In this document: positions 40,582 to 46,149 of the stretch, one piece after another
Position numbering within the stretch: the stretch's first letter is position 1
Layout of the letters: each line of letters opens with the position of its first letter
Assembly: GCF_004353825.1 (NCBI RefSeq)
Contig: NZ_SMNA01000001.1
Location: 372,001 to 436,000, forward strand
Direction of reading: 5' to 3'
Origin: Occultella glacieicola
GTDB taxonomy: Bacteria; Actinomycetota; Actinomycetes; Actinomycetales; Beutenbergiaceae
Length of the DNA stretch: 64,000 nt
The notes under the pieces: model-generated
The model's database searches: none
The model's input: only the letters and a program-made list of their open reading frames with translations
What the model was told of the DNA's origin: nothing
Made by a program: the position numbers and the translations under genes

Positions 40582-41301
40582 TCAACCCTGGGAACCACCC
40601 AGGTGATCACCGAGGAACGCCAGGGTGACCGGCCAGGCCGCGGCGGCGGCACGCGCGTGGTGGAACATCGGGTTCGGGTTGTCGAAGGCGTGACCGGCGC
40701 CCTCGTGCAACCGGAACTCGGCGCTGCCGTTGTCAGCGGTGACCGCGGCCCGGATCGTCTCGACCGACTCCAGGGGGATGTAGGCGTCCTCGGTCCCGAA
40801 GTGGTGCAGGCTCGGCGCCGTGATCGCCGGCGCCAGGGCGAGCAGGGCCGGCAGTGCCGAGCCGTAGTAGGAGACCAACGCGTCCACAGGCTCGAGCGCG
40901 GCCACGTTGAACGCGAGCCCGCCGCCGTAGCAGAAGCCGACCACGCCGACGCCGCCGCTGACCTCGGGGGCCGCCCGCAGCGCCGCCAGGGTCACGCGCG
41001 CGTCGCCGAGGGCATCCGCCCACGGCAACCGCCCGGCCAGCGCCATCCCACGCTCGAGCACGTCGGGCGCCGCCTCGTCGAGCTCGCCGTCCGCCAGCCG
41101 CCAGTACAGCTGCGGCGCGTACACGACGTACCCGGCCCGCGCCAGATCCGCGGCGCGGCCGCGGATGTACTCGCTGACGCCGAAGATCTCCTGCAGCAGG
41201 AGCAGGCCGGGGCCGGTGCCCGACGGCGGCCGCCACCGGTGCACGGGCAGGTCGCCGGAGTCCGTGGTGAGGGTGAGCACGTCATGGGTCGGGTCGGTCA
41301 T
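40582..41301 (-). CDS. Dienelactone hydrolase family protein
   Basis: LQEIFG, GFCYGG, SYYG, AGHAF. Confidence 0.93.
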   Translation of the reverse strand: MTDPTHDVLTLTTDSGDLPVHRWRPPSGTGPGLLLLQEIFGVSEYIRGRAADLARAGYVVYAPQLYWRLADGELDEAAPDVLERGMALAGRLPWADALGDARVTLAALRAAPEVSGGVGVVGFCYGGGLAFNVAALEPVDALVSYYGSALPALLALAPAITAPSLHHFGTEDAYIPLESVETIRAAVTADNGSAEFRLHEGAGHAFDNPNPMFHHARAAAAAWPVTLAFLGDHLGGSQG

Positions 41302-41397
41302 GATCGTCACCGTAGCTCGCCGCGTTCCCTCCCGCGGGGGAGCACCATCACCGGATCGCGGGATCTGCCGAGTTGCCCGGTCGGCGAGCGTGGAGGC

Positions 41398-41853
41398 ATG
41401 ACCACACAGACTGCAGGACAGACCGCCCAGGTGGCGCCGTCGACGACGGCTCGCACACCGAACCGCCTCACCATCGTCGCCGGCTGGTCGACGGTGGTCA
41501 TCGCCGCCGCTCACACGGCGGTCTTCGCGGGCAACCCCTACTGGGCCGACTGGCTCGGCGGCGCGATCCGGAACGGTACGGCCGACGTCGGGGCGATCGC
41601 CACGTTCTGGGCCCTGCCCGGCAGTTTCGTGCCGATCGCCATCCTGTTCGGGCTGCTGACCGTTCGGCTCGGGCGCCGCGGGGAGCGGCTGCCGGGCTAC
41701 GCCGGCTGGGTGCTGCTCGGCTGGTCCCTCGGCTGCGCCTACATGGTCGGACCGAGCGGCTTCCTGCTGGTCCTGGTGCCCGCGATCCTGCTCATCGTCG
41801 CCTCACTGCCCCGGTTCCGTCCGGACGTCGGTGACCGGAGCGCGCACCGCTGA
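41398..41853 (+). CDS. Small membrane protein (DUF6463-like)
   Basis: GGAGG SD; 4 TM segments, FWALPGSF, PSGF. Confidence 0.7.
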   Translation: MTTQTAGQTAQVAPSTTARTPNRLTIVAGWSTVVIAAAHTAVFAGNPYWADWLGGAIRNGTADVGAIATFWALPGSFVPIAILFGLLTVRLGRRGERLPGYAGWVLLGWSLGCAYMVGPSGFLLVLVPAILLIVASLPRFRPDVGDRSAHR

Positions 41854-41890
41854 AATTCCGTTGCCCGGCGCGCGCATCGGAACCTACCGT
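41853..41890 (+). promoter_or_regulatory. WhiB7-type promoter upstream of erm
   Basis: AAATT, 3 nt, TTGCCC (-35), 18 nt, TACCGT (-10). Confidence 0.6.
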
Positions 41891-41897
41891 CGCCGTC

Positions 41898-41984
41898 ATG
41901 AGCAACTACTTCATGATGGTGCGTCGTGTCCGGGAACGGGCAGCGACGCTGGGGCTGGCACCGGCTCCGGACGACCTGGGCTGA
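41898..41984 (+). CDS. Putative leaderless erm leader peptide MSNYFMMVRRVRERAATLGLAPAPDDLG
   Basis: ATG 7 nt after the -10; out of frame with erm and overlapping its start. Confidence 0.55.
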   Translation: MSNYFMMVRRVRERAATLGLAPAPDDLG

Positions 41985-42528
41985 ACGGATCCTCGACGGC
42001 ATCGCCGTCGGTGAGGGCGACCTCGTCCTCGATCTCGGCTCCGGGACGGGTGCGCTGACCCTGCCGCTGGCCGCGCGCGGCGCCCGGGTGATCGCGGTGG
42101 AACTGCACGCCGGCCGGGCCAGGTCGCTGCGCCACGCCGTCGCCGGTCAGGACCGGGTGCAGGTGGTGGAGGGTGACCTGCTGGAGACACCGCTGCCCCG
42201 GAGGCCGTTCCGGGTCGTCGCGAACCCGCCCTACGCCGTCGCCGCGGCCCTGGTCCGGCGCCTGACCGGCCGGGACTCGGCGCTGCGCCGGGCCGACCTG
42301 GTGGTGCCCCGGTGGATGGCGAACCGGTACGCCGCCGCCCCGCCGCGCGGGTTCACGGCCGAGGTCGGCGCGCACGTGCCGGCCGCCGCCTTCGACCCGC
42401 CGCCCCGGGCGGACAGCGCCGTGCTGGTGCTGCGCCGGACCCGGGCGCCGCAGCGACGCCAGGGTCAGCGGGGCCGGCAGGGTCAGCGGGGTCGACGGGG
42501 CCGGCGGGCCGCCCCCATGCGCCGCTGA
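41926..42528 (+). CDS. erm: 23S rRNA adenine-N6 methyltransferase, short Erm(37)/Erm(41)-like
   Basis: RRWGWHRL, VLDLGSGTGALT, VIAVELH, RRPFRVVANPPY, FDPPPRADSAVL. Confidence 0.85.
   Translation: MSGNGQRRWGWHRLRTTWAERILDGIAVGEGDLVLDLGSGTGALTLPLAARGARVIAVELHAGRARSLRHAVAGQDRVQVVEGDLLETPLPRRPFRVVANPPYAVAAALVRRLTGRDSALRRADLVVPRWMANRYAAAPPRGFTAEVGAHVPAAAFDPPPRADSAVLVLRRTRAPQRRQGQRGRQGQRGRRGRRAAPMRR
42460..42504 (+). repeat. 18-bp tandem repeat encoding QGQRGR in the Erm tail
   Basis: CAGGGTCAGCGGGGCCGG then CAGGGTCAGCGGGGTCGA. Confidence 0.7.
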
Positions 42529-42579
42529 CCGTGCCGACCGGCCGGCCGGCCGCTCGGGCCAGCGACCGTCGGCCGTGAG

Positions 42580-44217
42580 TCACGCCTGTGCGGCGTGTGC
42601 CTCCTCGTACTCGGCCCGGATGTCGTCCCCGCCACCGGACTTCCACGAGGCGACCGTCTCGTCCCAGGAGTCCACCGGTTCCCGACCGAGCAGGATCCCG
42701 TTGCGGGCGTCGTTCAGCATCGTGGTCAGTTGCCCGCCGACCCGGCCCTGGGTCTCGGAGTACAGGCCCCAGGAGGCCGTGAGGGAACTGGCCGGAACGG
42801 CGACCGCCTGGTGGTCGTACACCGCCTGGGCCACGTCCGGGCGCCCGGGGAAGTACGTCTCCTTGGGTGCGTCGACGAGGTACTCGACCGGGAACGCGCC
42901 GTTGGAGGTGTAGGCCAGGCCGTCCTGGGTGAGGACCGGCTCGCTGCCCTCGAACTCGAACGTCACGCCCTCGATGCCGTAGCTGCGGAACAGGTGCTCC
43001 TCGGTTCCGAACGGTGCGGCCAGGTAGTTCAGGACCTGCAGCAGCAGCCGGATCCGGTCCGGGTCGGCCTGCGCCAGCGAGGTGAAGGAGTTGTTGGGCA
43101 TGCCCTGCCACATCGGGGCCGGCTCGCCGTCGGGGCCGGGCGCCACCTGGAGCCCGAGCCGGTAGGCGTCGCCGATCGTGTTCCGGGCGAAGAAGCCGGC
43201 CACGGCCGTGTAGGTGTCCTCGATCACGGCGGCCGAACCCTGGCTGAACCAGGCCTTGGCGTCGGCGTTCGCGCCGCCCACACCGTCGGGGTGGACGAGG
43301 CCCTCCTCGACCAGTCGGCGGCCGAACTCGAGCGCATCCTTCTGCTCCGGCACCTCCAGGGCGTGCGTGAACGCCCCGGCGTCGTCGACCATCCACTCGT
43401 TCGTGATGCCGACCATCGACTGCAGGACCACGAACGGGATCTCGGTGAGCGCCCAGGCGTTGCCCTGCGGGTCGGTCATGTCCCGGCACAGCTGCAGGAA
43501 CTCGTCGAGGCCGGCGAAGGACGGGTCGACGCCGCGGGCCTCGAACAGGTCGTCGCGGGTGAAGATGATCTGGGAGCCGGTGATACCCCGCTGCACCGGC
43601 AGGCCGTAGATCCTGCCGTTGAAGACGGTGCCTCGCCAGGAGTCGGTGGGCAGGTTCGCCAGGAACGGGTAGTCCGCGATCGCGTCGCCGGCCAGGAACT
43701 CGGTGAGGTCCTGGCACTTGGCCTCGAGGAACTGCGGCAGTTGCGACAACGAGTCGTCGACGTTGAAGATGTCGCCCAGGTTGTCGCCGGCCACCGCCGT
43801 GGCGAACCGTTGCGGGTAGTCGGCGCCGGGGGTGATGGACAGCTGCAGTTCCGAGCCGACCCGCTCGTTCAGCTCGGCCCAGTACGGGTTCCGGTCCGCC
43901 GTCGGCGGGATCGGGGCGAAGGTGCCCATCGAGGCCGAGACCGGTTCGCCGTCGCCCGGCTTCTCGGAGGTCGCCGGCTGCGGGTCGGACGGATAGGCGA
44001 AGAACACGTGCGGGATCCCACCCTCGCCCACGATGTCCGGCTGCACCCCCTCGTAGGGGATGTAGGTCGGCAGCACCGCCGCCGGGCCGGACGGGTCGCC
44101 GCCCGGCTCCGCCCCGGACGAGTCCGAGCAGCCGGCCAGGGTCGGTGCGGCGGCGAGGGCGGCCAGGCCGCCGAGACCTCCGCGCAGGACGTTGCGGCGG
44201 GAGATGAACGTGCTCAT
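42580..44217 (-). CDS. Carbohydrate ABC transporter solute-binding lipoprotein (Tat-exported)
   Basis: SRRNVL twin-arginine motif, LAGC lipobox, GRIYGLP, W...GG. Confidence 0.9.
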   Translation of the reverse strand: MSTFISRRNVLRGGLGGLAALAAAPTLAGCSDSSGAEPGGDPSGPAAVLPTYIPYEGVQPDIVGEGGIPHVFFAYPSDPQPATSEKPGDGEPVSASMGTFAPIPPTADRNPYWAELNERVGSELQLSITPGADYPQRFATAVAGDNLGDIFNVDDSLSQLPQFLEAKCQDLTEFLAGDAIADYPFLANLPTDSWRGTVFNGRIYGLPVQRGITGSQIIFTRDDLFEARGVDPSFAGLDEFLQLCRDMTDPQGNAWALTEIPFVVLQSMVGITNEWMVDDAGAFTHALEVPEQKDALEFGRRLVEEGLVHPDGVGGANADAKAWFSQGSAAVIEDTYTAVAGFFARNTIGDAYRLGLQVAPGPDGEPAPMWQGMPNNSFTSLAQADPDRIRLLLQVLNYLAAPFGTEEHLFRSYGIEGVTFEFEGSEPVLTQDGLAYTSNGAFPVEYLVDAPKETYFPGRPDVAQAVYDHQAVAVPASSLTASWGLYSETQGRVGGQLTTMLNDARNGILLGREPVDSWDETVASWKSGGGDDIRAEYEEAHAAQA

Positions 44218-44263
44218 GATGTGTTCCTTTCGATTCCGGGGGACGACGTCGCGGGGCGGGCGG

Positions 44264-45151
44264 TCAGCCTTTGACCGCTCCGGTGAGGACGCCTTTGGCG
44301 AAGTGACGCTGGAGGAAGGGGTAGACGATCAGGATCGGAACGATCGTGACCACGAGGATCGCCATCTGTACCGAGGCCTGCGGTGGCACCACGTCCACCG
44401 TGGCGCCGAGGTCGGAGGCCCCCAGCTCCGCGTTGTTGACGACGTAGGTGCGCAGCACGAGCTGGAGCGGCCACTTGCCGGAGTCGTTCATGTAGAGCAG
44501 CGCGTTGAAGAACGCGTTCCAGTACCCCACCGCGTAGAACAGCCCGATCACGGCCAGCACGGCCTTGGAGAGCGGCAGCACGATGTTCGTGAAGATCCGA
44601 AGGTGGCCGGCGCCGTCGATGCGGGCGGAGTCGGTCAGTTCCGCGGGGATGCCCATGAAGAAGGAGCGCAGGACGATCACGTTGAACCCGCTCAGGGCCG
44701 TCGGCAGGATCAGGGCCCAGTAACTGTCCAGCAGCCCGAACTCCTTGACCACCAGGTAGTTCGGGATCATCCCGGGCGAGAACAGCAGGGTCAGCAGCAC
44801 CAGCATCAGCATCGGCTTCTGCCCGAACGAACCCTGCCGGGAGAGGGCGTAGGCGAGCAGCGTCGAGGCGACCAGGCTCACCGCGGTTCCGACCACGGTG
44901 ATCCCGATGCTGACCAGCATCGCCTGCGAGACCACGCCACCGGCGAAGATCGACCGGTAGGCGTCCCAGGTGACGCTCGACGGGAACAGCACGAACCCGC
45001 CCGCCGCGTTGACCTGTTCACGGGTCGCCAGGCTGGTGGACACGATGCCGACGAACGGGATGATCACCAGGGCGCAGATCACCGTCAGTGCGATGCCCTT
45101 GACGGCACGCGCCGGCATCGGCGGTGCGTCCAGGCGGCGGGAGGCGCTCAT
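44264..45151 (-). CDS. Carbohydrate ABC permease
   Basis: EAA-like loop IPAELTDSARIDGA, YPFLQRHF..G....GAVKG. Confidence 0.93.
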   Translation of the reverse strand: MSASRRLDAPPMPARAVKGIALTVICALVIIPFVGIVSTSLATREQVNAAGGFVLFPSSVTWDAYRSIFAGGVVSQAMLVSIGITVVGTAVSLVASTLLAYALSRQGSFGQKPMLMLVLLTLLFSPGMIPNYLVVKEFGLLDSYWALILPTALSGFNVIVLRSFFMGIPAELTDSARIDGAGHLRIFTNIVLPLSKAVLAVIGLFYAVGYWNAFFNALLYMNDSGKWPLQLVLRTYVVNNAELGASDLGATVDVVPPQASVQMAILVVTIVPILIVYPFLQRHFAKGVLTGAVKG

Positions 45152-46149
45152 GACTTGTACACCCCCGCTTCCCCGAAGATGTGCGCGACCTTGTTGGCGC
45201 CGAGGACCAGGATCACGCCGACCACTCCCTTGACGAGTCCGACCGCTGCCGAGACGCCCCACTGCCCGCCGACGATGCCGTTGTTGTAGACGTAGGTGTC
45301 CAGGACCTCGCTCGCGGCCAGGCCGACACTGTGCTGCTGCAGGATGATCTGCTCGAAGCCGACCGTGAGGGAGTCGCCGAGCCGCAGGATCAGCAGCAGG
45401 ATGATCAGGCCGCGGATGCCCGGCAGGGTGACGTGCCAGAGCTGGCGGATCCGGGAGGCGCCGTCCACGCTGGCCGCCTCGTAGAGGGAGGAGTCGATCT
45501 GCGAGAGGGCGGCCAGGAACAGGATCGTCGCCCAGCCGGTGTCCTTCCAGATCACCTGGGTGGTCAGCAGGGTCACGAACAGGTCCGAGTTGCCCATCAG
45601 CGAGATCGGGTCGAGGCCATTCGCCCGCAGCGTGTTGTTGATGAGTCCGCTGCCGCCGACGATCTGCTGGAACACCGCGACCACGATCACCCAGGACAGG
45701 AAGTGCGGGAGGTACAGGATCGACTGGACCACGCGTTTGATCCGCTCGGACAGCAGGCTGTTCAGCAGCAGGGCCAGCGCGATCGGCGCCGGGAACACGA
45801 ACACGACCTGGACGAGGGTCAGCACGAGTGTGTTGCGCAGCGCACGCAGGAACGCCGGGTCGCCGTTGAGGATGACCTCGAAGTTCTCCAGCCCCACCCA
45901 CGGGCTGGACCCGAACGGCAGGAACGGGACGTAGTCCTGGAACGCGATCACGTTGCCGATCAGGGGCAGGTAGTGGAACCCCAGGACCAGGGCCATGCCG
46001 GGGACGGCCATCAGGATCAGGGCCCGGTCGCGGTGCAGCCGCCGGTACCAACGCTGCTTGTGCCGGCGTGACGGCGGGCGGGTCGCCCCGGTGACCGCCC
46101 GGGCCTCGGGGGCCCGTACGGCGACCGGGTCGGTCGCGGTGTGACTCAC
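45148..46149 (-). CDS. Carbohydrate ABC permease (LplB-like)
   Basis: WVGLENF, YLPHFLSWV, LYEAASVDGA; AGGAGGAG SD. Confidence 0.93.
   Translation of the reverse strand: MSHTATDPVAVRAPEARAVTGATRPPSRRHKQRWYRRLHRDRALILMAVPGMALVLGFHYLPLIGNVIAFQDYVPFLPFGSSPWVGLENFEVILNGDPAFLRALRNTLVLTLVQVVFVFPAPIALALLLNSLLSERIKRVVQSILYLPHFLSWVIVVAVFQQIVGGSGLINNTLRANGLDPISLMGNSDLFVTLLTTQVIWKDTGWATILFLAALSQIDSSLYEAASVDGASRIRQLWHVTLPGIRGLIILLLILRLGDSLTVGFEQIILQQHSVGLAASEVLDTYVYNNGIVGGQWGVSAAVGLVKGVVGVILVLGANKVAHIFGEAGVYKS

Follow-up and report, generated by a model that had tools for sequence, protein, structure and literature searches.

A leaderless peptide lies out of frame over the start of short erm genes in Actinomycetota and may link macrolide arrest to re-initiation on the erm start codon

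How could a macrolide switch on an erm gene if the ribosome that it arrests sits on the start codon of that very gene? The erm locus of Occultella glacieicola poses this question. In the window analysed here (the whole 64,000-nt stretch of DNA), a short leader ORF with a leaderless start signature lies out of frame over the erm start and carries an R-x-R motif exactly at the overlap. A preliminary description had placed the AT tract, the −35, the −10, the ATG, the 28-aa ORF and the GTG within its codon 10, and every one of these coordinates proved exact on re-reading.

41853..41857, + strand: AT tract AAATT, 3 nt before the −35, putative WhiB7-type binding site
41861..41866, + strand: −35-like hexamer TTGCCC, 18-nt spacer to the −10
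41885..41890, + strand: −10 hexamer TACCGT, separated by 7 nt from the leader ATG; predicted transcription start site (TSS) at 41898
41898..41984, + strand: leaderless leader ORF, 28 aa, MSNYFMMVRRVRERAATLGLAPAPDDLG, conserved only in its first 12 residues
41918..41921, + strand: weak SD-like GGTG, 4 nt, ahead of the erm start
41921..41949, + strand: predicted hairpin of 12 bp that buries the start codon of erm; arms 41921-41932 and 41937-41949, −21.1 kcal/mol
41925..41933, + strand: R10-V11-R12 of the leader, where macrolide/ketolide arrest is predicted (P site on V11, A site on R12)
41926..42528, + strand: Erm-type rRNA adenine methyltransferase, short (200 aa), Erm(37)/Erm(41) clade by profile matches and alignment
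41982..41984, + strand: leader stop TGA, made by the erm codons GCT-GAA

The product of 41926..42528 consists of a catalytic domain followed by an Arg/Gly-rich tail. It matches PF00398 (RrnaAD) at 75.6 bits against a cut-off of 24, as expected of an Erm-type methyltransferase domain, and its best NCBIfam matches, Erm41 (149.7 bits) and Erm37 (146.8 bits), cover profile positions 2-172 of 173, which bears out the earlier assignment as an Erm(37)/(41)-like gene. The W-G-W-H N-terminus (alignment A1) and the absence of a C-terminal domain are those of the short clade. The protein does not reach the NCBIfam cut-off of 350 bits for Erm(41) or Erm(37) proper, and the broad Erm profile scores 113.6, below its threshold of 212. 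With 47% identity to the mycobacterial Erm41-like protein of locus L220 and scores far under both family cut-offs, it represents a distinct allele class. Methylation of 23S A2058 and macrolide resistance are presumed from homology. Across the 167 orthologues scored below, the GxGxG motif is invariant and a [NS]PP[YF]-type motif is present in 163. Residue 2 is Ser, Pro or Ala in 160 of them, which fits a true N-terminus under the methionine-removal rule. In the Occultella locus, a TGA in the erm frame at 41914 leaves no earlier erm start possible.

The closest named relatives of the gene are from Occultella and Ruania. Homologues occur in 24 of 36 genomes of the family and 16 of 301 genomes of the order, and their distribution across the phylum is patchy: no homologue appeared among 301 genomes sampled evenly from a further family of the class, and a one-genus sample yielded one in 400 genomes scored. 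A search of 72,556 plasmid records returned zero homologues at E 1e-20. One homologue with a leader (L047) comes from a MAG classed as Chloroflexota, reflecting either transfer or mis-binning.

The −10-to-ATG spacing of the leader had been described as that of many leaderless genes in the window, and the genome agrees. Crude gene calls gave 4,483 coding-like ORFs with 10,977 in-frame ATGs close to their 5′ ends, and TANNNT precedes these ATGs at spacer 6 in 173 cases, spacer 7 in 167 and spacer 8 in 52, against 3-19 cases at each other spacer; 9 of the 50 coding-like ORFs in the window start with this spacing. A −10 box 6-7 nt before an ATG is found at only 508 of the 82,186 ATGs in the genome. 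The erm GTG (41926) begins at the second base of leader codon 10 and thus occupies bases 2-4 of the R10-V11-R12 stretch. The leader peptide has zero Pfam matches.

For a view of conservation, we gathered 189 distinct loci with the anchor motif, in addition to five without it. Ten long-type Erms, seven loci too close to a contig end and three without the W anchor were set aside, leaving 169; L153 and L197, which have no normal start at the junction, were also left out, so that 167 loci were scored, the Occultella locus included. As these loci are related, the counts overstate their independence. Every one of the 24 family loci, and every one of the 167 scored, has a leaderless, out-of-frame leader across its erm start, and the check for a conserved uORF and frame proposed in the preliminary description therefore came out positive. 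TANNNT precedes the in-frame leader start in 149 of the 167 (spacer 6-7 in 147), compared with none before a start in the third, control frame and none before the erm start itself. The leader starts 7-11 codons before the overlap in 142 loci, and 8 or 9 codons before it in 123.

Conservation is concentrated at the junction. The overlap codon encodes Arg in 161 loci, His in 5 and Cys in 1, and always completes a GTG or ATG; the next codon is Val (97), Ala (57) or Gly (13), and the one after that is Arg in 164 of 167. Two and three codons before the overlap stand Val (146) and Met (139), respectively. The third base of erm codon 2, synonymous for Erm and needed for the last leader Arg, is C in 164 loci, compared with 50 expected. 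A leader stop falls within 30 codons in 165 of the 167 loci (21% expected) and is made by several different T-ending erm codons; it lies 14-19 codons past the overlap in 132, the full range of this distance being 12-39 codons. Residues past the junction show no conservation. On a quick tree, the class of the middle residue changed at least 36 times while the start codon and Arg were held, and the His/ATG overlap variant arises at two separate places. The first R/K-x-R/K of the leader stands at the junction in 134 of 142 loci, and the residues before it are nearly uncharged. Only 3 of 401 genomes contain a match to a 20-nt junction pattern, and all of these matches are at erm starts, none at another gene; five other loose junction matches in the Occultella genome look random. 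Hence the R-x-R on the erm start within a leaderless leader, as first described, is conserved and under selection at synonymous sites and at the stop codon, and the leader over the erm start is a real, strongly selected regulatory module. By comparison, strong selection on an SD before the erm start was rejected as a candidate feature: the Val codon bearing the SD-like GGTG varies, being GTG in 80, GTC in 60 and GTT in 6 of the 167 loci.

Loci outside the scored set tell us something about the breadth of the module. Four contig-edge loci, L167 and 10 of 13 long-type loci likewise show the junction. The latter (L027, L029, L030, L032-L038) are longer Erm-like genes, with ~200-290 aa past the anchor, and their leaders indicate a module wider than the short clade; L026, L028 and L031 are long-type loci without a leader over the erm start. 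L029 and L038 have an SD-like run ahead of the leader, and in L034 the R-x-R comes two codons earlier than usual. Three loci, each a single metagenome contig that may contain an assembly error, are irregular: leader and Erm share one frame in L153:200-290, GTT stands at the erm start position with an intact leader in L197:955-1010, and L167:695-830 has an intact junction with a frame break later in erm.

The preliminary description saw no room for an attenuator hairpin. This was wrong, as the predicted 12-bp stem at 41921-41949 covers the erm start codon. Its z-score is −3.6 for a 35-nt window picked around the stem and −1.5 for the 113-nt region. Opening the erm start region is calculated to cost 17.5 kcal/mol, compared with 10.3 ± 3.8 kcal/mol for SD-led starts of the genome (250 of 1,568 sampled, 4% of which reach 17.5). 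Of the 167 orthologue folds, 154 have the erm start paired above 0.5, and the median z of a 40-nt window is −0.87 versus +0.28 for the control; the start regions open about as easily as windows inside erm (16.8 versus 16.3 kcal/mol; 152 distinct loci). A single conserved, covarying hairpin found no clear support: with alignment A3, RNAalifold placed no hairpin at the start (−0.34 kcal/mol), and with alignment A2 it predicted another stem, which does not covary. Among 500 covariation shuffles, 70-481 matched the named stems of A2 and 7-158 those of A3, in which the stem was taken from the Occultella locus, and a held-out base in the stem predicted its partner poorly. Folding models thus have the erm start occluded by structure in the Occultella locus, with weak covariation across orthologues. 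An Rfam search of 41300-42700 gave only one chance match (E 0.58), and a generic promoter/terminator scan of the locus gave no matches and no terminator-like site.

The promoter ahead of the leader has the sequence features of WhiB7-activated promoters, for which an AT-rich tract 3 bp before the −35 and a TANNNT −10 are described (PMC10727445). Of 142 orthologues, 98 have an AT run of at least 4 in the interval −36 to −27 before the −10, compared with 4 and 2 in the flanking windows, which, together with the fit to the published motif, upholds the earlier claim of a WhiB7-like promoter. The AT tract is present in only 11 of 24 Acidimicrobiia loci, and the −35 to −10 spacer is 17-18 in 79 of 142 orthologues, with no −35 motif found in 55. 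The host encodes a WhiB7 with EPW, GVWGG and an AT-hook (L219:1393-1779), hallmark features according to PMC10727445, which reports WhiB7 binding and dependence for erm41 of M. abscessus. Strict WhiB7-motif matches in the Occultella genome number 15, against 2-18 in eight off-register controls; since this count is not above the controls, support for the promoter comes from conservation and orthology. Motif and orthology suggest that WhiB7 activates the Occultella erm promoter.

Elsewhere in this genome, whiB7 itself (128 aa; L219:1393-2200 on contig C16, − strand) has its own WhiB7-type promoter, a 55-codon uORF and a long leader. Strict motifs also precede genes for two GNAT acetyltransferases, an MFS protein, an ABC exporter, a beta-lactamase-fold protein, a glyoxalase-like protein and an ArsR regulator (L236-L245), which form a candidate WhiB7 regulon by a motif that is not enriched over controls. 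An ABC-F gene (C19, near 196,400) combines a looser WhiB7 motif with a leaderless start.

Ribosomes arrested on R-x-R hold the middle residue in the P site while the last Arg occupies the A site (PMC8298421), which would place the P site of an arrested leader ribosome at 41928-41930. In each of the 167 loci, this P-site codon starts 2 nt beyond the erm start, whereas a classical attenuator has its arrest site far enough upstream for a second ribosome to reach the start. With the P site on the erm start, a second ribosome would be shut out and classical attenuation could not work. Because the arrested ribosome would cover the start, the arrest must be useless, harmful or resolved in place, and conservation of the arrest motif argues against the first two. 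The suspicion that the mechanism would be unusual is strengthened, since the arrested ribosome itself would cover the erm start.

The reading that we favour, and to which we give about an even chance for the Occultella locus, is a two-tier control in which WhiB7 acts together with a drug-induced arrest that serves as a conditional stop, the same ribosome re-initiating on erm. WhiB7 would activate a σA promoter whose transcript starts at the leader ATG (41898), and ribosomes would load at the 5′ AUG and translate the leader. When drug is absent, they would pass the junction, terminate at 41982 and depart, and the erm GTG, with its weak SD and buried in structure, would remain shut. When a macrolide or ketolide is present, ribosomes would arrest on R10-V11-R12, where, with a P site 2 nt beyond the erm GTG, they would keep the structure open and cover the erm start such that a second ribosome could not load. 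Peptidyl-tRNA drop-off, possibly with HflX splitting, would empty the arrested complex, and the same 30S or 70S would re-initiate on the erm GTG. The A-site Arg codon would then be a drug-conditional stop, with the geometry of an 8-nt start/stop overlap. Arrest and re-initiation on the Occultella leader are steps that we infer, alongside the anatomy, conservation and selection that we observe. That the Actinomycetota Erm lineage at large, erm(41) and erm(37) included, is switched on by arrest-coupled re-initiation atop WhiB7, with no second ribosome, we propose more tentatively, at a little under even.

Overlaps of 8 nt form a local peak in the Occultella genome, numbering 53, compared with 7-21 at 7, 10, 11 and 14 nt (crude gene calls). 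The genome also encodes HflX, and macrolides are reported to cause drop-off, with HflX splitting such ribosomes (PMC12493154). Re-initiation after such drop-off or splitting would suit every scored locus. Several observations count against arrest-coupled re-initiation: no WhiB7 motif was found before hflX in this genome; the first Arg is replaced by His or Cys in six loci, and the second is missing from three; the hairpin covaries weakly, and start regions are no harder to open than erm interiors; and L153 and L197 depart from the pattern. Moreover, 71 of 167 Erm N-termini have an R/K-x-R/K of their own, at which a drug-bound ribosome could stall again, and the conserved C-G might serve the hairpin instead of Arg. 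We know of no precedent for arrest-triggered re-initiation.

The mycobacterial genes appear to carry the same arrangement. The primary TSS of erm(41) in M. abscessus lies 28 nt before the start, in a listed context ending in AT (PMC4974804), and would correspond to the leader ATG; the ribosome-profiling supplements of that paper contain zero sORF rows at the erm(41) leader, which counts against the favoured model. For M. tuberculosis, a TSS-defined, leaderless 26-aa ORF with an R-R-V-R junction is listed that overlaps a W-G-W-H frame 28 nt in (PMC9094748). Its entry is TSS-based, with blank density cells and an unnamed gene, again a point against arrest-coupled re-initiation, and no entry was found for the erm start of the locus. 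The mycobacterial Erm41-like locus L220 has the same leader. From the W-G-W-H motif and the interval 2231652-2231732, which we take to be the erm(37) site, we read the 26-aa ORF as the leader of erm(37).

Published views of these genes vary. PMC6966227, citing Nash 2009, mentions a second ORF at the erm(41) 5′ end with a predicted role as leader peptide; in a 2014 paper (PMC4128351), erm(37) is set apart from uORF-controlled genes as a 'notable exception'; and a 2026 preprint describes erm(41) as WhiB7-controlled while proposing a non-overlapping leader for erm(55) (10.64898/2026.07.08.737060). The genes erm(41) and erm(37) resemble the Occultella gene in belonging to the short Erm clade, probably in the leader and, for erm(41), in the 28-nt 5′ end; the accounts consulted treat them as WhiB7-controlled, and the Occultella allele class is distinct. 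Our search, outside of which most subscription journals lay, found no literature on the breadth, register or mechanism of the overlapping leader; further related erm literature includes PMC13410324.

Among the alternatives, the best supported, though unlikely, is that coupling operates independently of drug: leader translation opens the structure, or terminating ribosomes scan back, drug control runs through WhiB7 only, and the R-x-R is a by-product of start codon and stem. The first Arg indeed follows from C+GTG and is replaceable, the start is paired in most folds, the nearby leader stop is strongly selected and overlapping uORFs are known to act by coupling (PMC13285730), yet this account leaves the fixed, uncharged N-terminus of 7-11 codons and the nearly invariant second Arg unexplained. 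It would also tolerate a useless arrest motif on the start, which would be harmful, and it sits poorly with stop distances varying from 12 to 39 codons and with Acidimicrobiia, where the leader is kept while the AT tract is found in fewer than half of the loci.

We give a small chance to the leader being a repressor or mRNA-fate element, with leader ribosomes occluding the erm start and cutting leakiness, arrest mainly shielding or trimming the mRNA 5′ end, and fresh 30S subunits making Erm after the stall. Stall-dependent stabilisation of erm mRNA is known. Two starts 28 nt apart would conflict sterically, close upstream sites are reported to occlude (PMC13285730) and Erm over-expression is costly (PMC13170274). 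What such an element gives no reason for is the constant 2-nt register between P site and start across many lineages.

A slim chance goes to a drug-induced frameshift, in which a backward slip of the peptidyl-tRNA by 2 nt (from GTC to GTG, each a Val codon), or a hop, yields a leader-Erm fusion and evades arrest by bringing Ser into the A site in place of Arg. The fused frame of L153 and the lack of an ATG, GTG or TTG start in L197 suit it, though each is a single metagenome contig, and macrolide-induced frameshifting is known for ermC (cited in PMC4128351). Cognate Val-to-Val re-pairing is possible in 93 of the 167 loci, Occultella included, and is thus not conserved as in a programmed frameshift: it is poor or lacking in the 13 Gly and 5 ATG loci, fits by wobble only in 56 Ala loci, and take-off and landing codons for a hop match in only 79. 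A start codon, superfluous for a fusion, is kept in every scored locus and was twice retained when Arg was traded for His. The +1 frameshift fusion raised in the preliminary description fails, as no tRNA re-pairing exists for it at the junction and variants keep the start codon at Arg's expense; on the re-pairing counts, +1 frameshifting, −2 slippage and hopping were all rejected as general mechanisms.

Very improbable is a classical-like attenuation further downstream, in which a ribosome that stalls later, e.g. at the leader stop, masks the hairpin's 3′ arm so that a second ribosome loads on the GTG. The stalled ribosome would obstruct the newcomer, and the conserved motif sits at the junction while post-junction residues are unconserved; the 3′ arm does lie downstream of the start, and a stop 14-19 codons past the overlap in 132 loci leaves roughly enough room. 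Chance overlap or a GC-rich reading-frame artefact, conceivable because alternative ORFs are plentiful at 71% GC, is already refuted by the empty control frame, the synonymous-site and stop-codon selection, the TSS data and the restriction of the 20-nt pattern to erm starts in 3 of 401 genomes.

Set beside known systems, the Occultella leader is an erm leader whose geometry departs from the one that defines classical attenuation. With ErmDL/RLR-type leaders it shares a short leader, an R-x-R at the catalytic centre (here at codons 10-12) and an erm start predicted to lie in structure. A classical attenuator has a leader that terminates before the erm start, and stalling there uncovers a separate ribosome-binding site for another ribosome (10.1101/834739, PMC8298421), whereas in Occultella the predicted arrest site coincides with the erm start codon, and the leader is both leaderless and in a different frame. 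For erm(55), the predicted leader likewise has its motif, R-I-R, at positions 10-12 (10.64898/2026.07.08.737060). Termination-re-initiation coupling has in common a start codon under the ribosome when elongation ends and the 8-nt overlap geometry, but the 'stop' in Occultella would be a sense Arg codon made impassable by drug. Ketolide-induced frameshifting in the ermC leader, where drug likewise acts on the ribosome translating an erm leader, requires a slippery run, and none is conserved at the Occultella junction. The whiB7 uORF attenuator, present in the same genome and regulon, also senses ribosome stalling through a uORF but acts on a transcription terminator in a long leader (PMC10727445); no terminator was found at the erm leader.

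Treatment of M. abscessus is shaped by inducible macrolide resistance through erm(41), which the accounts consulted credit to WhiB7 alone. If arrest-coupled re-initiation holds, a translational sensor on the start codon would bear on inducer differences among macrolides and on the reading of 5′-end polymorphisms, and could guide the choice of non-inducing drugs. It would be a new mode of leader-peptide control, in which a sense Arg codon becomes a conditional stop through the antibiotic and the arrested ribosome itself restarts 2 nt upstream on the resistance gene. The fixed register bears on whether an arrested bacterial ribosome can re-initiate in place, and ~170 natural variants mark which leader positions matter.

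The surroundings of the locus complete the description. The 27-residue Erm tail (window 42445-42528) is rich in Arg, Gly and Gln, contains a short imperfect repeat and varies in length among relatives. Upstream, a DUF6463 membrane-protein gene (41398-41853; E 4.7e-6) shares the last base of its stop codon with the AT tract, and a dienelactone-hydrolase-family gene lies at 40582-41301 on the − strand. Downstream, a convergent set of ORFs (42580-46071, − strand) resembles, by eye, a sugar ABC transporter.
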